From Escherichia coli O157:H7 (lineage in GTDB: Bacteria > Pseudomonadota > Gammaproteobacteria > Enterobacterales > Enterobacteriaceae), in the NCBI RefSeq assembly GCF_013167455.1, contig NZ_CP038328.1: a DNA stretch of 64,000 nt. One strand, given 5' to 3'. The notes under the pieces are model-generated. The model was not told the origin of the DNA and searched no databases. It was given only the letters and a program-made list of their open reading frames with translations. Position numbers and translations under genes: made by a program. Of this stretch, positions 2,982 to 53,973 are shown piece by piece. The first letter of the stretch is position 1. The number at the start of each line of letters is the position of its first letter.

Positions 2982-5261
2982 ATGGATGACCAGTTAAAAC
3001 AAAGTGCACTTGATTTCCATGAATTTCCAGTTCCAGGGAAAATCCAGGTTTCTCCAACCAAGCCTCTGGCAACGCAGCGCGATCTGGCGCTGGCCTACTC
3101 ACCAGGCGTTGCCGCACCTTGTCTTGAAATCGAAAAAGACCCGTTAAAAGCCTACAAATATACCGCGCGCGGTAACCTGGTGGCGGTGATCTCTAACGGT
3201 ACGGCGGTGCTGGGGTTAGGCAACATTGGCGCGCTGGCAGGCAAACCGGTGATGGAAGGCAAGGGCGTTCTGTTTAAGAAATTCGCTGGGATTGATGTAT
3301 TTGACATTGAAGTTGATGAACTCGACCCGGACAAATTTATTGAAGTCGTCGCTGCGCTCGAACCGACCTTCGGCGGCATCAACCTCGAAGACATTAAAGC
3401 GCCAGAATGTTTCTATATTGAACAGAAACTGCGCGAGCGGATGAATATTCCGGTATTCCACGACGATCAGCACGGCACGGCAATTATCAGCACTGCCGCC
3501 ATCCTCAACGGCTTGCGCGTGGTGGAGAAAAACATCTCTGACGTGCGTATGGTGGTTTCCGGCGCGGGTGCTGCAGCAATCGCCTGTATGAACCTGCTGG
3601 TAGCGTTGGGTCTGCAAAAACATAACATCGTGGTTTGCGATTCAAAAGGCGTTATCTATCAGGGCCGTGAGCCAAACATGGCGGAAACCAAAGCCGCATA
3701 TGCGGTAGTGGATGACGGCAAACGTACCCTCGATGATGTGATTGAAGGCGCAGATATTTTCCTCGGCTGTTCCGGCCCGAAAGTGCTGACCCAGGAAATG
3801 GTGAAGAAAATGGCTCGAGCGCCAATGATCCTGGCGCTGGCGAACCCGGAACCGGAAATTCTGCCGCCGCTGGCGAAAGAAGTGCGTCCGGATGCCATCA
3901 TCTGTACCGGCCGTTCCGACTACCCGAACCAGGTGAACAACGTCCTTTGCTTCCCGTTCATCTTCCGTGGCGCGCTGGACGTTGGCGCAACCGCCATCAA
4001 CGAAGAGATGAAACTGGCGGCGGTACGCGCGATTGCAGAACTGGCCCATGCGGAACAGAGTGAAGTGGTGGCTTCAGCGTATGGCGATCAGGATCTGAGC
4101 TTTGGCCCTGAATACATCATTCCAAAACCGTTTGATCCGCGTCTGATAGTCAAGATTGCTCCTGCGGTCGCGAAAGCGGCGATGGAGTCGGGCGTGGCGA
4201 CGCGTCCGATTGCTGATTTCGACGTCTACATCGACAAGCTGACTGAGTTCGTTTACAAAACCAACCTGTTTATGAAGCCGATTTTCTCCCAGGCTCGCAA
4301 AGCGCCGAAGCGCGTAGTTCTGCCGGAAGGGGAAGAGGCGCGCGTTCTGCATGCCACTCAGGAACTGGTAACGCTGGGACTGGCGAAACCGATCCTTATC
4401 GGTCGTCCGAACGTGATCGAAATGCGCATTCAGAAACTGGGCTTGCAGATCAAAGCGGGCGTTGATTTTGAGATCGTCAATAACGAATCCGATCCGCGCT
4501 TTAAAGAGTACTGGACCGAATACTTCCAGATCATGAAGCGTCGCGGCGTCACTCAGGAACAGGCGCAGCGGGCGCTGATCAGTAACCCGACAGTGATCGG
4601 CGCGATCATGGTTCAGCGTGGCGAAGCCGATGCAATGATTTGCGGTACGGTGGGTGATTATCATGAACATTTTAGCGTGGTGAAAAATGTCTTTGGTTAT
4701 CGCGATGGCGTTCACACCGCAGGTGCAATGAACGCGCTGCTGCTGCCGAGTGGTAACACCTTTATTGCCGATACCTACGTCAATGACGAACCAGACGCAG
4801 AAGAGCTGGCGGAGATCACCTTGATGGCGGCAGAAACTGTCCGTCGTTTCGGTATTGAACCGCGCGTTGCTCTGTTGTCGCACTCCAACTTTGGTTCTTC
4901 TGACTGCCCGTCGTCGAGCAAAATGCGTCAGGCGCTGGAACTGGTCAGGGAACGTGCGCCAGAACTGATGATTGATGGTGAAATGCACGGCGATGCAGCG
5001 CTGGTGGAAGCGATTCGCAACGACCGTATGCCGGACAGCCCTTTGAAAGGTTCTGCCAATATTCTGGTGATGCCGAACATGGAAGCTGCCCGCATTAGTT
5101 ACAACTTACTGCGCGTTTCCAGCTCGGAAGGTGTGACTGTCGGTCCGGTGCTGATGGGCGTGGCGAAACCGGTTCACGTGTTAACGCCGATCGCATCGGT
5201 GCGTCGTATCGTCAACATGGTGGCGCTGGCCGTGGTTGAAGCGCAAACCCAACCGCTGTAA
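2982..5261 (+). CDS. maeB: NADP-dependent malic enzyme (malic enzyme domain fused to phosphotransacetylase-like domain)
   Basis: 759-aa [26 protein letters not shown]...; length and sequence match MaeB as recalled. Confidence 0.95.
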
Positions 5262-47625: not shown

Positions 47626-47701
47626 TGGTGGGTCGTGCAGGATTCGAACCTGCGACCAATTGATTAAAAGTCAACTGCTCTACCAACTGAGCTAACGACC
47701 C
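47626..47701 (-). tRNA. lysV: tRNA-Lys (anticodon UUU)
   Basis: Reverse complement reads GGGTCGTTAGCTCAGTTGGTAGAGCAGTTGACTTTTAATCAATTGGTCGCAGGTTCGAATCCTGCACGACCCACCA. Confidence 0.95.
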
Positions 47702-47705
47702 GAAG

Positions 47706-47781
47706 TGGTGGGTGATGACGGGATCGAACCGCCGACCCCCTCCTTGTAAGGGAGGTGCTCTCCCAGCTGAGCTAATCACCC
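47706..47781 (-). tRNA. valY: tRNA-Val (anticodon UAC)
   Basis: Reverse complement reads GGGTGATTAGCTCAGCTGGGAGAGCACCTCCCTTACAAGGAGGGGGTCGGCGGTTCGATCCCGTCATCACCCACCA; third of three identical copies. Confidence 0.95.
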
Positions 47782-47827
47782 ACTTCGGTACTTCACATTT
47801 TTACAAGAAATTTAGCTGGTGAGAAAG

Positions 47828-47903
47828 TGGTGGGTGATGACGGGATCGAACCGCCGACCCCCTCCTTGTAAGGGAGGTGCTCTCCCAGCTGAGCTAATCA
47901 CCC
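47828..47903 (-). tRNA. valX: tRNA-Val (anticodon UAC)
   Basis: Identical to valY copy. Confidence 0.95.
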
Positions 47904-47947
47904 ACTTCTCAATTTCTTGCTACACGGCGGAGACTACATAAAGTAGT

Positions 47948-48023
47948 TGGTGGGTGATGACGGGATCGAACCGCCGACCCCCTCCTTGTAAGGGAGGTGC
48001 TCTCCCAGCTGAGCTAATCACCC
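47948..48023 (-). tRNA. valU: tRNA-Val (anticodon UAC)
   Basis: Identical to valY copy; first gene of the tRNA operon. Confidence 0.95.
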
Positions 48024-48281: not shown

Positions 48282-49697
48282 ATGAAAATCAAAACTCGCT
48301 TCGCGCCAAGCCCAACAGGCTATCTGCACGTTGGCGGCGCGCGTACTGCTCTTTACTCCTGGCTTTTTGCACGTAATCACGGCGGTGAGTTCGTGCTGCG
48401 TATTGAAGACACCGATCTTGAGCGTTCCACGCCGGAAGCTATCGAAGCCATTATGGATGGCATGAACTGGCTGAGCCTGGAGTGGGATGAAGGTCCGTAC
48501 TTCCAGACCAAACGTTTTGATCGCTACAACGCGGTGATCGATCAGATGCTGGAAGAGGGCACAGCTTATAAATGCTATTGCTCTAAAGAGCGCCTGGAAG
48601 CGCTGCGCGAAGAGCAAATGGCGAAAGGTGAGAAGCCGCGTTATGACGGTCGCTGCCGCCACAGTCATGAGCATCACGCTGATGATGAGCCGTGTGTCGT
48701 ACGTTTTGCTAACCCGCAGGAAGGTTCTGTTGTTTTTGACGATCAGATCCGTGGTCCGATCGAGTTCAGCAACCAGGAACTGGACGATCTTATTATCCGC
48801 CGTACCGATGGTTCCCCAACCTATAACTTCTGTGTGGTTGTCGATGACTGGGATATGGAAATCACCCACGTTATCCGTGGCGAAGACCATATCAACAACA
48901 CGCCACGCCAGATCAACATTCTTAAAGCCCTGAAAGCGCCGGTACCGGTTTACGCGCACGTTTCTATGATCAACGGCGATGACGGCAAAAAACTGTCCAA
49001 ACGTCACGGGGCAGTCAGCGTAATGCAGTATCGTGATGACGGTTATTTGCCAGAAGCACTGCTGAACTATCTGGTGCGTCTGGGCTGGTCCCACGGCGAT
49101 CAGGAAATCTTCACTCGTGAAGAGATGATCAAATACTTCACTTTGAATGCCGTCAGCAAATCTGCCAGTGCGTTCAACACCGACAAGCTGCTGTGGCTGA
49201 ACCATCACTACATTAACGCGCTGCCGCCGGAGTATGTTGCTACTCACTTACAGTGGCACATTGAGCAGGAAAATATCGATACCCGTAACGGCCCGCAGCT
49301 GGCTGATCTGGTGAAACTGCTGGGCGAACGCTGCAAGACGCTGAAAGAGATGGCACAGAGCTGCCGTTATTTCTACGAAGATTTTGCTGAGTTCGATGCC
49401 GACGCCGCGAAAAAACATCTGCGTCCGGTAGCGCGTCAGCCGCTGGAAGTGGTTCGTGACAAACTGGCCGCGATTACTGACTGGACAGCTGAAAACGTTC
49501 ATCACGCTATTCAGGCGACGGCGGATGAGCTGGAAGTGGGTATGGGTAAAGTTGGTATGCCGCTGCGTGTCGCCGTAACCGGTGCGGGGCAGTCTCCGGC
49601 GCTGGACGTTACCGTTCACGCGATCGGTAAGACCCGCAGTATCGAGCGTATCAACAAAGCGCTGGCTTTTATTGCGGAACGCGAAAATCAGCAGTAA
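48282..49697 (+). CDS. gltX: glutamyl-tRNA synthetase
   Basis: 471-aa ORF with HIGH-class motif ([12 protein letters not shown]) and KLSKR (KMSKS-like). The antisense 366-aa ORF 48147..49247 is a shadow. Confidence 0.97.
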
Positions 49698-50240
49698 TTA
49701 GCGCATAAAAGATAAACGGCAGGAGAGATACCCCTGCCGTTTTTTATTTATCCGGTGCGCCGTAAAACCCCGTCCTTCAGGGCGGGGATATAAGGCGCGG
49801 TTTTCCACCTGACCAGGTGTTTGCTGTTGTTCAATGTATTGGCGGATGACGGATATTGGCGCACCTCCGCAGCTACTGGCAAAATAGCCAGGACTCCACA
49901 AAACGCCTTTGTAGTAATACCTGACTGCAATATCTGGTCGATCTCGTCGCAGTAACCTACCCGATACGCCTTTGAGGCTGTTTACCAGACTGGATATCGC
50001 CAGTTTGGGAGGATAGTTAGTTAACAAATGGACGTGATCTGGTTCGCCATCCATTTCAACCAGTTCAGCTTCAAAATCAGCACATACATTTGAAAAGTAA
50101 GTGCGTAGTTTTTCTGTCGCGTCATAGTCAAAAATCTGACGTCGGTATCTGGTGACAAAGAACAGATGAACATGCATCAGGAAAACACAATGCCTTCCCC
50201 GTCGGATATCGGTTTCTTTATTCATAGACCAAAGTATCAT
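49698..50240 (-). CDS. tnpA: IS200/IS605-family Y1 (HUH) transposase TnpA, with unusual C-terminal extension
   Basis: ORF contains DIRRGRHCVFLMHVHLFFVTRYRRQIF...DHVHLL (HuH motif)...SPGYFASSCGG...IRQYIEQQQ; ORF continues ~40 codons beyond the usual end, through the gltX terminator. Start may be ATG 50225 (MNKETD...). Confidence 0.75.
   Translation of the reverse strand: MILWSMNKETDIRRGRHCVFLMHVHLFFVTRYRRQIFDYDATEKLRTYFSNVCADFEAELVEMDGEPDHVHLLTNYPPKLAISSLVNSLKGVSGRLLRRDRPDIAVRYYYKGVLWSPGYFASSCGGAPISVIRQYIEQQQTPGQVENRALYPRPEGRGFTAHRINKKRQGYLSCRLSFMR
49718..49747 (+). terminator. gltX rho-independent terminator
   Basis: CGGCAGG-AGAGATACC-CCTGCCG followed by TTTTTT, 20 nt after gltX stop. Confidence 0.75.
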
Positions 50241-50247
50241 TTGGCCT

Positions 50248-50583
50248 GTGAAACGACTACAGGCATTTAAATTCCAGTTAAGACCAGGTGGTCAACAGGA
50301 GCGTGAAATGAGGCGCTTCGCAGGCGCATGTCGTTTCGTTTTCAATCGTGCTCTGGCGCTTCAGAATGAGAATCATGAGGCCGGTAATAAATACATCCCT
50401 TACGGGAAAATGGCTTCCTGGCTGGTTGAGTGGAAAAACGCCACTGAAACGCAATGGCTTAAAGATGCCCCGTCACAGCCATTGCAACAGTCACTGAAAG
50501 AGCTTGAGCGGGCTTACAAAAACTTCTTCCGGAAGCGGGCTGCTTTTCCCCGATTCAAAAAGCGGGGACAGAATGATGCATTC
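50248..50583 (+). pseudogene. tnpB: tnpB (RNA-guided nuclease of IS200/IS605 family), N-terminal fragment interrupted by IS629
   Basis: GTG-start ORF (M)KRLQAFKFQLRPGGQQEREMRRFAGACRFVFNRALA..., typical TnpB N-terminus; terminates at the first triplet (TGA) of the IS629 left end. Confidence 0.8.
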
Positions 50584-50637
50584 TGAACCGCCCCGGGAAT
50601 CCTGGAGACTAAACTCCCTGAGAAAGAGGTAAACAGG

Positions 50638-50964
50638 ATGACTAAAAATACACGTTTTTCCCCCGAGGTCCGTCAACGAGCAGTTCGTATGGTTCTGGAA
50701 AGTCAGGGCGAATATGACTCACAATGGGCGGCAATTTGTTCCATTGCCCCAAAGATTGGCTGTACACCAGAGACTCTGCGTGTGTGGGTTCGTCAGCATG
50801 AGCGGGATACCGGGAGTGGTGATGGTGGACTCACCACCGCTGAACGTCAGCGTCTGAAAGAGCTGGAACGTGAAAATCGTGAACTGCGCCGCAGTAACGA
50901 TATCCTTCGCCAGGCTTCCGCTTATTTTGCGAAGGCGGAGTTCGACCGCCTCTGGAAAAAATAA
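50638..50964 (+). CDS. IS629 OrfA (HTH / leucine-zipper transposase N-terminal protein)
   Basis: 108-aa [60 protein letters not shown]... Confidence 0.9.
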
Positions 50965-51851
50965 TGCCGCTGCTGGATAAGCTGCGTGAGCAGTACGGGG
51001 TCGGACCGGTATGCAGTGAACTGCATATTGCCCCGTCAACGTATTACCACTGTCAGCAACAGCGACATCATCCTGATAAACGCAGTGCCCGTGCTCAGCG
51101 CGATGACTGGCTGAAGAGAGAGATACAGCGCGTATACGATGAAAATCATCAGGTGTACGGTGTGCGTAAAGTCTGGCGCCAGTTGTTACGCGAAGGTATC
51201 AGGGTGGCCAGATGTACAGTGGCGCGCCTCATGGCGGTTATGGGACTTGCCGGTGTTCTCCGGGGTAAAAAGGTCCGTACTACCGTCAGCCGGAAAGCCG
51301 TTTCCGCAGGCGACCGCGTAAACCGTCAGTTCGTGGCAGAACGTCCTGACCAGCTGTGGGTGGCTGATTTTACTTACGTCAGCACATGGCAGGGCTTCGT
51401 CTATGTGGCGTTCATCATTGATGTGTTTGCCGGATGTATCGTGGGGTGGCGAGTCTCATCGTCTATGGAAACGACATTCGTGCTGGATGCACTGGAGCAG
51501 GCGTTGTGGGCCCGTCGGCCGTCCGGCACAGTCCATCACAGTGATAAAGGTTCTCAGTATATATCACTGGCCTATACGGAGCGACTAAAAGAAGCAAAAC
51601 TGCTGGCATCAACAGGGAGTACAGGTGACTCGTATGACAACGCGATGGCGGAGAGCATCAATGGTCTTTACAAAGCGGAGGTAATACACCGTAAGAGCTG
51701 GAAAAACCGTGCAGAAGTGGAACTGGCCACACTCACGTGGGTGGACTGGTATAACAATCGACGATTGCTGGGAAGGCTGGGTCATATCCCTCCGGCAGAA
51801 GCAGAAAAAGCTTATTATGCTTCCATCAGAAACGATGATCTGGCAGCCTGA
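50964..51851 (+). CDS. IS629 OrfB (DDE integrase-type catalytic domain), expressed as OrfAB by -1 frameshift
   Basis: 295-aa ORF in -1 frame relative to orfA with DDE-region sequence (WVADFTYV...HSDKGSQY...NAMAESINGLYKAE); A-rich slippery stretch GGAAAAAATAATG at the overlap. Confidence 0.9.
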   Translation: MPLLDKLREQYGVGPVCSELHIAPSTYYHCQQQRHHPDKRSARAQRDDWLKREIQRVYDENHQVYGVRKVWRQLLREGIRVARCTVARLMAVMGLAGVLRGKKVRTTVSRKAVSAGDRVNRQFVAERPDQLWVADFTYVSTWQGFVYVAFIIDVFAGCIVGWRVSSSMETTFVLDALEQALWARRPSGTVHHSDKGSQYISLAYTERLKEAKLLASTGSTGDSYDNAMAESINGLYKAEVIHRKSWKNRAEVELATLTWVDWYNNRRLLGRLGHIPPAEAEKAYYASIRNDDLAA

Positions 51852-51896
51852 GTTCACAGATAAAACACTCTCCAGGAAAACCGGGGCGGTTCATTC

Positions 51897-52769
51897 CGCT
51901 ACCCGCAGGGCGTTAAGCTCGATCAGGAAAACAGCCGTATTTTTCTGCCGAAACTTGGCTGGATGCGCTACCTGAACAGCCGTCAGGTCACGGGTGTTGT
52001 GAAAAATGTCACTGTCAGCCAGTCCTGCGGTAAGTGGTACATCAGTATTCAGACAGAAAGTGAAGTATCAACTCCGGTTCACCCTTCAGCATCAATGGTC
52101 GGACTGGATGCTGGCGTGGCTAAACTCGCCACGCTGTCAGATGGCACAGTCTTTGAGCCTGTAAACAGTTTTCAGAAAAACCAGAAGAAGTTGGCGAGAC
52201 TTCAGCGACAGTTAAGCCGCAAGGTCAAATTCAGCAATAACTGGCAGAAGCAGAAACGCAAAATACAGCGACTGCATTCCTGTACCGCAAATATCCGCAG
52301 GGACTACCTTCACAAAGTCACAACGACCGTCAGCAAAAACCACGCAATGATAGTCATTGAGGATTTGAAGGTCAGCAACATGTCAAAGTCAGCAGCGGGT
52401 ACGGTCAGCCAGCCGGGGCGCAATGTCCGGGCAAAATCAGGTTTAAACCGTTCGATACTGGATCAGGGCTGGTATGAAATGCGCCGCCAGCTTGAGTACA
52501 AGCAGCTCTGGCGTGGCGGTCAGGTACTGGCTGTTCCGCCAGCGTACACAAGCCAGCGTTGCGCGTGCTGTGGTCATACAGCGAAAGAAAACCGCCTGTC
52601 ACAAAGTAAATTCAGATGCCAGGTATGTGGATATACAGCGAACGCCGATGTAAACGGCGCTCGTAACATTTTAGCGGCGGGGCACGCCGTTCTTGCCTGT
52701 GGAGAGATGGTGCAGTCAGGCCGCTCGTTGAAGCAGGAACCCACCGAAATGATTCAGGCGACAGCCTGA
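51897..52769 (+). pseudogene. tnpB: tnpB C-terminal fragment (RuvC-like nuclease and zinc-finger portion)
   Basis: In frame with N-terminal fragment once IS629 plus one TTC copy are removed (about 402 aa reconstructed); contains GLDAG (RuvC-I Asp), IVIEDLKV (RuvC-II Glu), CACCGH...[18 protein letters not shown] (Zn finger and RuvC-III). Confidence 0.8.
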
Positions 52770-52808
52770 ACGTAGCAGGGATCCTCGTCATTCAGGGCGT
52801 GGAGGATG

Positions 52809-53201
52809 TCAAGCTGATTCATCTATGTCGAGACGAGCAAGGAAATTACGAATTCCTTCGCGTGACAAAAATTGCGCAACTTTTTCCTGCTCACTGTGAG
52901 TCATGTTGTCTATTGCACTGATGATTTGCCGATAAGCAGGAGTGCGAATCCCCGGTGCGTATTCGGCAAGGGGTTCTTCGGCTTCCAGAAGCATCGGTGT
53001 GTTATGGAAGGCTGGCGTGTTCTGAATAAACTCGCAAACTTGCGTATCGACCAGAATAAGTCTGGCACGACCGCCTTTCACGCCGGGAAATTTTTCCGTT
53101 TTCCAGCCTTTTTCTCTGATCCAACGGTTAACAGTTTGTTTAGCCACACCGAGGCATTCAGCCAGTTCTTCGGTGGTCATTTTATTGCGTAATCTTTTCA
53201 T
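52809..53201 (-). CDS. yfeD: HTH DNA-binding protein YfeD
   Basis: 130-aa ORF MKRLRNKMTTEELAECLGVAKQTVNRWIREKGW...; paralogous to adjacent yfeC. Confidence 0.85.
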   Translation of the reverse strand: MKRLRNKMTTEELAECLGVAKQTVNRWIREKGWKTEKFPGVKGGRARLILVDTQVCEFIQNTPAFHNTPMLLEAEEPLAEYAPGIRTPAYRQIISAIDNMTHSEQEKVAQFLSREGIRNFLARLDIDESA

Positions 53202-53782: not shown

Positions 53783-53858
<76 letters not shown>

Positions 53859-53897
53859 AATTTTGCACCCAGCAAATTTGGTACGTAAACGCATCGT

Positions 53898-53973
<76 letters not shown>

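Follow-up and report, generated by a model that had tools for sequence, protein, structure and literature searches.

The 64,000-nucleotide stretch of DNA from Escherichia coli O157:H7 analysed here (contig NZ_CP038328.1 of assembly GCF_013167455.1; in the following, the window) carries between the convergent genes gltX and yfeD a nested pair of insertion sequences (IS). The outer one is IS609, an element of the IS200/IS605 family with a Y1-transposase gene (tnpA) on the minus strand and the gene of a TnpB nuclease (tnpB) on the plus strand; the inner one is a complete element of the IS3 family, IS629, which splits tnpB after codon 112 (Table 1). The order of the genes was taken from a map of the open reading frames (ORFs) and from inspection of the raw sequence of positions 49400–53100. 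The nesting had been proposed before from the letters of the DNA without database searches (the sequence-only reading), and the results below bear on the single claims then made.

Table 1. Features of the gltX-yfeD region, with positions counted from the first nucleotide of the window.
Feature	Positions	Strand	Basis or remark
gltX, glutamate--tRNA ligase, left neighbour	48282..49697	+	471-amino-acid ORF; annotated gltX in identical O157:H7 region
tnpA, Y1-transposase ORF	49698..50240	-	
Native hairpin terminator	49714..49742	.	12-pair stem followed by T run; in K-12 empty site too
TTTAT, IS609 target site and predicted transposon-adjacent motif (TAM) for TnpB	49747..49751	+	
IS609, interrupted	49752..52812	+	3061 bp = 1748 + 1310 + 3
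Left-end subterminal hairpin of IS609, CCCCGTCC-TTCA-GGGCGGGG	49768..49787	+	
tnpB 5' fragment, codons 1-112, HTH_OrfB_IS605 region	50248..50583	+	
Left tnpB ORF, 112 codons	50248..50586	+	ORF map
TTC target-site duplication, left copy (tnpB codon 112)	50581..50583	+	
IS629, complete, 1310 bp	50584..51893	+	
IS629 orfA, 108 amino acids	50638..50964	+	
ALIL pseudoknot, stimulates IS3-family -1 frameshift	50919..51035	+	Rfam RF01497
IS629 orfB, DDE transposase domain, 295 codons	50964..51851	+	-1 frame relative to orfA, from coordinates
TTC target-site duplication, right copy	51894..51896	+	
tnpB 3' fragment, codons 113-402 and stop, RuvC and zinc-finger residues	51897..52769	+	
C-terminal tnpB ORF, 268 codons	51963..52769	+	ORF map
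Predicted scaffold of the guide RNA (omega RNA), from within the tnpB 3' end through the right end	52665..52812	+	Comparative structure
Right-end subterminal hairpin of IS609, degenerate in this copy	52782..52803	+	
yfeD	52809..53201	-	yfeC adjoins in ORF map
Predicted 16-nucleotide guide (GCTGATTCATCTATGT), antisense to yfeD 3' end	52813..52828	+	Inferred from published TnpB mechanism (PMC8612924)

By its sequence, the insert is to be placed, as a complete element, into the IS629/IS1203 group of the IS3 family. Elements of the IS3 family are 1.2–1.55 kb long with imperfect inverted repeats of the type TG...CA, duplicate 3–4 bp of their target and have two reading frames, orfA and orfB, with a frameshift signal, and all of this was found in the insert. 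Its inverted repeats (50584–50608 and 51869–51893; termini TGAACC...GGTTCA) comprise 25 nucleotides (nt) that are 88% complementary in a repeat search, and both ends carry the 13-mer TGAACCGCCCCGG, which is present at only these two places in the window as compared with 0.14 matches expected by chance. The profile for IS3 transposases (NCBIfam NF033516) matches orfA with 45.1 bits (profile positions 1–86) and orfB with 312.9 bits (positions 93–369); the ALIL pseudoknot is recognised with 120.9 bits, the gathering score being 50 (E = 7.5e-32), and the orfA/orfB frameshift module is intact. Copies that agree with it over all 1310 bp (100% identity) occur on E. coli plasmids of about 95 kb, and a copy on a plasmid of O111:H- strain 11128 is 99.9% identical. 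The designation of the insert as a complete 1310-bp IS3-family element, IS629, in the sequence-only reading is borne out by these properties. The TTC direct repeat that it had reported on both sides of the insert is indeed present, and excision of IS629 together with one TTC yields an intact tnpB from which no bases are lost and to which none are gained. Known IS629/IS1203 elements (IS3 family, IS51 group; found in O157:H7, O111 and Shigella) share with the insert the length of 1310 bp, the TGAACCGCCCCGG termini, the 3-bp duplication, the −1 frameshift between orfA and orfB and the ALIL pseudoknot; it differs from them in the insertion site only. The IS629 copies of O157:H7 include a subtype I, which is nearest to IS1203, an IS629 isoform first found in O111:H- (Rump et al., PMC3271280), and the copy at 50584–51893 fits the description of this IS1203-like subtype in its sequence.

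The ends of the outer element were located by alignment with two sequences of E. coli K-12, the gltX-yfeD region, where the site is empty, and the feature annotated as "insertion sequence:IS609". IS609 begins at 49752 (CCGGTGCG...) and ends at 52812 (...GGATGTCAA), and when 49752–52812 are deleted in silico the K-12 junction is obtained, TTTTTTATTTAT directly followed by GCTGATTC, without duplicated bases. After removal of IS629 and one TTC the host element is 1748 bp long, exactly as long as the K-12 feature, to which it is 97.5% identical. In four independent insertions (in the window, between ydcL and ydcO of K-12, in Tatumella pTA1 and in JNE23-001) the pentanucleotide TTTAT is found directly 5' of the left end; it is the fixed target that one would expect for the IS200/IS605 family. 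Both marks of this family, insertion without target duplication and insertion 3' of a fixed target of 4–5 nt, are thus seen in the IS609 copy. The left-end hairpin has as single-stranded DNA a folding energy of −14.1 kcal/mol (z −2.46) and is the direct-repeat partner (D6) of the right-end hairpin, which has the sequence and position expected for this repeat and a stem that is broken by two substitutions.

It should be noted that the outer bounds of 49698 and 52808 given in the sequence-only reading had to be corrected by 54 and 4 bases, respectively. The left one is wrong because 49698 is only the end of the tnpA ORF, which reads past the left end of the element into the gltX terminator; the 54 bases from 49698 to 49751 are native sequence, including the gltX/yfeD terminator hairpin, and lie outside IS609. 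At the other side, IS609 does not abut the 3' end of yfeD, as had been stated, but overlaps it: bases 52809–52812 (TCAA) belong to both and give the third base of the last Ala codon and the TGA stop. The gene ends with GCA TAA in K-12 and with GCT TGA in the window, where TTGA is complementary to the terminal TCAA of IS609; both proteins end with DIDESA, and the C-terminal residues of YfeD are unchanged. Comparison with the empty site of K-12 thus confirmed that the insertion was clean, but not that it had occurred in an intergenic region of about 47 bp: the K-12 spacer has 51 bp, and the insertion point is not in this spacer but within the last sense codon of yfeD.

IS609 of K-12 (yncK/insQ, between ydcL and ydcO) resembles the copy in the window in the length of 1748 bp, in the divergent orientation of tnpA and tnpB, in the ends CCGGTGCG...GGATGTCAA, in the TTTAT target and in a lost tnpA stop codon, which is CAG in both. 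The right end of both copies also supplies a convergent gene of the host with its stop codon (yfeD in the window, ydcO in K-12); the annotated ydcO stop lies within the last four bases of IS609. As the target TTTAT reads ATAAA on the other strand, one may ascribe to IS609, as a minor reading of the sequences, a tendency to insert at TAA stop codons within A-rich terminators and to rebuild the stop. The two copies differ in that the one in the window is located between gltX and yfeD, has two extra disruptive substitutions in the right-end hairpin and a tnpB split by IS629, and that its tnpA is without an internal stop, whereas tnpA of the K-12 copy contains an internal stop and has lost its ATG.

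When the two tnpB fragments are joined, an ORF of 402 amino acids results, in frame and colinear as had been claimed from the sequence alone, the product of which is identical to the intact TnpB of O157:H7 JEONG-1266 (WP_000826440.1). Around the insert there are 0 mismatches in 1988 bases to the DNA of this strain. The restored protein matches the TnpB profile NCBIfam NF040570 with 382.7 bits, contains the Pfam domains HTH_OrfB_IS605, OrfB_IS605 and TNB, and can be aligned over residues 3–376 with the TnpB from ISDra2 of solved structure (E = 2e-53). The RuvC residues D183, E267 and D363 and the zinc-finger residues C334, C337, C353 and C356 are all present, in line with what had been seen before, and all are encoded downstream of IS629. 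These motifs and domains are assembled only in the restored ORF, the gene being split in the window. From the severance of the N-terminal 112 residues from the RuvC and zinc-finger part we infer that the locus makes no functional RNA-guided nuclease any more. TnpB from ISDra2, an OMEGA RNA-guided nuclease, is of similar size as the restored IS609 protein and has the RuvC D/E/D and CxxC...CxxC motifs in common with it. The two systems differ in the TAM, which is TTGAT in ISDra2 and predicted to be TTTAT in IS609, in the orientation of tnpA, which in IS609 is divergent from tnpB, and in the interruption of the nuclease gene of the copy in the window. A TnpB designated "IS609" is reported to have been purified for a screen of trans-cleavage, in which another orthologue was the most active (PMC12781874).

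The tnpA product matches the profile NCBIfam NF033573 with 137.8 bits over positions 2–126 of 126, i.e., in full length and with a complete catalytic core, and the HVH motif and the tyrosine within RQYIEQQ that characterise a Y1 HUH transposase are visible in the ORF. Together with the TnpB match this substantiates the earlier assignment of the host element to the IS200/IS605 family with an HUH TnpA on the minus strand and TnpB on the plus strand. The copy shows, however, two signs of decay, of which the sequence-only reading made no mention. The first concerns the end of tnpA. The intact TnpA of IS609 (from JNE23-001) has 141 amino acids and ends with QQQTPG followed by a TAG stop. The codon at this place (49809–49811 on the minus strand) is TAG in JNE23-001 and in the Tatumella relative, but CAG in the window and in K-12, and reading through it, across the left end and its hairpin into the gltX terminator to 49698, adds 38 residues. 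An identical tnpA from O157 is flagged as a pseudogene in RefSeq. The second sign concerns the right end, where T52785 and A52790 break two pairs of the stem, the only such breaks in the alignment of 11 sequences described below. The right-end hairpin has a 9-bp stem and −7.7 to −10.5 kcal/mol in K-12, JNE23-001 and Tatumella, as compared with −5.0 kcal/mol (z −0.46) in the window. Uninterrupted IS609 copies of O157 are identical at these decayed positions, and the loss of the tnpA stop and the changes in the hairpin are therefore features of the lineage that are older than the insertion of IS629. These comparisons suggest that the IS609 between gltX and yfeD had become poorly mobile before the arrival of IS629, and the copy in the window probably moves poorly or not at all. 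IS629 has left both ends of IS609 and the scaffold of the predicted guide RNA physically untouched. Since the ends and the guide-RNA region are intact, transposition of the 3061-bp composite is conceivable in principle, provided that its variant right end is recognised by a working TnpA.

Junctions of the two insertions were searched for among the complete genomes of E. coli, 5426 in number. The junction between the gltX terminator and the left end of IS609 is present in 533 of them, and in the O157:H7 genomes listed the gltX-yfeD copy is uninterrupted and 100% identical, so that other genomes of the lineage do carry the intact element that the sequence-only reading had proposed to look for. 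The junction between tnpB and IS629 (GACAGAATGATGCATTCTGAACCGCCCCGGG), searched with a 100-nt query spanning it, was found in 0 of the 5426. The sole match with full coverage came from an O111:NM strain, in which it was split into two parts separated by about 420 bp, and is a different insertion. In the first search, which had another query, five records covered 93% of that query; the one that was inspected (EPSSH018) has IS609 between ydcL and ydcO with an IS3-family element in tnpA and is thus of another structure. Looking up the exact 112- and 268-amino-acid TnpB fragments in public draft and read-derived assemblies revealed no convincing second case, the matches being a scaffold gap of Ns (GCA_000267505.2), contig ends and an allele with a 2-bp frameshift (SRR35785792). 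Because the restored tnpB and the 1988 bases are identical to those of JEONG-1266 and the junction is present in no complete genome, the insertion of IS629 is, as judged from these sequences, recent, as had been thought before, and within the collections searched specific for the source strain.

A junction that is absent from all complete genomes is also what one would expect if the assembly were at fault, i.e., if a copy of IS629 had been misplaced into tnpB and the real locus were an uninterrupted IS609. IS629 is present in multiple copies in the O157:H7 lineage (PMC3271280), and such elements are a classic source of misjoins. The exact ends of the element, the perfect 3-bp duplication and a tnpB without bases lost or gained are, however, the signature of a real transposition, and strain-specific sites of IS629 are the norm in O157:H7 (PMC3271280, PMC4667661). 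Moreover, IS3-family elements have also inserted into other copies of IS609. In O111:NM 2010C-3053 an element designated in RefSeq as "IS3-like element IS1203 family transposase" interrupts tnpB of IS609, and in EPSSH018 it is tnpA that is interrupted. The kind of nesting is the same in the three cases, but locus and position within IS609 differ from those in the window, and 2010C-3053 and EPSSH018 therefore represent independent events. An assembly artefact is thus considered to be extremely improbable.

For the structure of the predicted guide RNA, 12 homologous tnpB loci with 37–94% TnpB identity to the query were taken from plasmids. Nine of these (53–94% identity) were aligned with the window and with the IS609 copy of K-12 over a stretch that begins approximately 105 nt before the end of tnpB and includes the right end, which gave 11 sequences with a TnpB identity of 53–98%. 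RNAalifold predicted a consensus of 37 pairs in six helices, 12 of the pairs with compensatory double changes. Paired cells amounted to 96.1%, as compared with 88.8% in shuffled alignments and 45–50% in slid controls, and the 12 pairs with double changes compare with 5.2 ± 1.4 in shuffles (none of 500 reached 12) and with 2–5 in slid controls. Helices 2, 3 and 5, which covary, are located inside or just past the coding region, and their covariation argues for a constraint on the RNA beyond that on the protein. Conservation of the sequence ends exactly at ...GGAGGATGTCAA (GTCAA) in every aligned homologue, by which the right boundary of the element is independently confirmed. The fold of 52665–52828 as a single sequence is not significantly stable (z −1.59), and the structural case rests on the comparison.

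A conserved structured RNA at 52665–52812 fits, by its sequence comparison, the guide RNA expected for a TnpB element. The guide RNA of ISDra2 overlaps the 3' end of tnpB and the right end and stops at the transposon boundary, and the RNA predicted for IS609 is alike. By analogy with ISDra2 (PMC8612924) the scaffold would extend over approximately 52665–52812, the guide over approximately 52813–52828, and TTTAT would be the TAM. The place where the sequence-only reading had expected the guide RNA, at the 3' end of tnpB and the right end, is thus occupied by a conserved RNA structure, but the guide itself would lie beyond 52812, inside yfeD.

In an Rfam scan of the guide-RNA region no family reached its gathering score. 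A hint was given by RAGATH-18 (RF03064), which matched 52696–52739 on the plus strand with 29.5 bits, where 44.9 are required for membership; the internal stem is shortened, with 17 nt for 44 positions of the model, and the resemblance is limited to the core motif. In a joint scan of the homologous loci, RAGATH-18 was missing from the matches with E values of 0.1 or less. Other matches below threshold were to HgcC (16.1 bits, in the window and likewise on the strand and at the place expected) and to sot0042 (22 bits, in the Tatumella homologue). RAGATH-18 RNAs are the cores of guide RNAs of IS607 TnpBs, and co-occurrence was found with IS607 TnpBs only (PMC11061315, 2024). Here, the core CCUGUGGAG...CGUUGAAGCAGGAA (52696–52739) resembles RAGATH-18 in an element with a Y1 transposase (IS605 group), and this likeness in sequence may point to a shared core motif.

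Could the interrupted locus have kept its function, in that it is still guarded or regulated? The guide RNA would then be loaded in trans by TnpB from a second copy, or the 268-amino-acid ORF downstream of IS629 would be expressed. This ORF holds all catalytic residues, IS629 has not touched the scaffold region, the structure of which is conserved in the family, and O157:H7 genomes have two places that match the 3' part of tnpB, the second of which is not at ydcO. A promoter scan, however, found no plus-strand sigma-70-like site between IS629 and the scaffold from which the C-terminal ORF or the guide RNA could be transcribed, and promoter-like sites were no more frequent than by chance (2 in total versus a mean of 2.8 in shuffles). 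The scaffold includes the right-end hairpin with its broken stem, and the ORF is without the N-terminal 134 residues that include the HTH_OrfB_IS605 domain. The second IS609-like copy was seen as a match to the 3' part of tnpB. We therefore regard it as very improbable that the locus still works in one of these ways.

The locus is best explained by two successive transpositions, IS629 into tnpB of an IS609 that was already there, without any new biology, to which we assign a probability of about 0.93. In the first step, which is old and lineage-wide, IS609 inserted 3' of TTTAT without duplication, presumably as single-stranded DNA (peel-and-paste), four bases before the end of yfeD, the stop of which was rebuilt by the terminal TCAA. 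Later this copy lost the tnpA stop and acquired the two stem-breaking changes at its right end. In the second step, recent and strain-specific, IS629 inserted after codon 112 of tnpB, presumably by copy-out-paste-in, thereby duplicating TTC. IS629 is highly active in O157:H7. The transposition mechanisms of both elements are taken by analogy from the literature on their families. Both elements are catalogued, this type of nesting recurs and the mechanisms are known; what is found in the window is an ordinary strain-specific insertion of a kind already known.

Several points weigh against this reading or parts of it. The insert was seen in assembled sequence only, in which a mis-assembled IS copy is formally possible, and the names IS629 and IS609 depend on RefSeq and K-12 annotation and on identity to named copies. 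TnpB function is presumably lost, but there remains the 268-amino-acid ORF with all catalytic residues. With respect to the predicted guide RNA, the statistics against shuffles are inflated by the relatedness of the 11 sequences in the alignment, and helix 6 is at the same time the right-end DNA hairpin recognised by TnpA, for which reason covariation in this helix is ambiguous between RNA and DNA. One could also assume that the "dead" IS609 is still policed by TnpB supplied in trans from the second IS609-like copy, which would load the RNA with its guide fixed on the yfeD 3' end and cut the empty site after excision, or that the RNA acts antisense on yfeD; the landing on and rebuilding of stop codons is a related minor reading. 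Such a reading appears very improbable.

Accepting the two-step nesting, the region should be annotated as IS609 (49752–52812) interrupted by IS629 (50584–51893), with tnpA and tnpB as pseudogenes and yfeD ending inside the right end of IS609. IS629 sites are already in use as typing markers in O157:H7, and the strain-specific site found here could be added to them. The family alignment provides for IS609 a first working model of the scaffold of its guide RNA together with a probable TAM, TTTAT, for possible tests of this E. coli TnpB. Beyond annotation the importance is small.

A few observations were made in passing. A tnpB of the IS609 type is nearly universal in E. coli, at least 80% of its 3' part being present in 4867 of the 5426 genomes, and the K-12-type copy at ydcO was found in 3265 genomes but is missing from O157:H7, which has its second copy elsewhere. 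In several draft assemblies of O157 the same tnpB contains a gap or a contig end at positions equivalent to 51897–51974 of the window; the gap in GCA_000267505.2 is in the region 4337–4475, and one gap begins one base past the IS629 site. These gaps might reflect insertions of other repeats, or coincidence. In the Logan assembly of SRR35785792, IS609 at gltX-yfeD has a 2-bp deletion (TTTTCCCC to TTTCCC) that shifts the frame of tnpB, which is an independent inactivation.

The convergent genes gltX and yfeD of K-12 share a single hairpin terminator. In the window (49714–49742) this terminator is 3 kb away from yfeD, and since the insertion of IS609 transcription of yfeD has had to pass through 3 kb of IS sequence in antisense direction before arriving at it. 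The tRNA clusters that flank the region have normal scores and are syntenic with those of K-12: the minus-strand cluster consists of four tRNA genes at the position of valU-valX-valY-lysV and the plus-strand cluster of two at the position of alaW-alaX, the clusters being located at 47629–48023 and 53783–53970.

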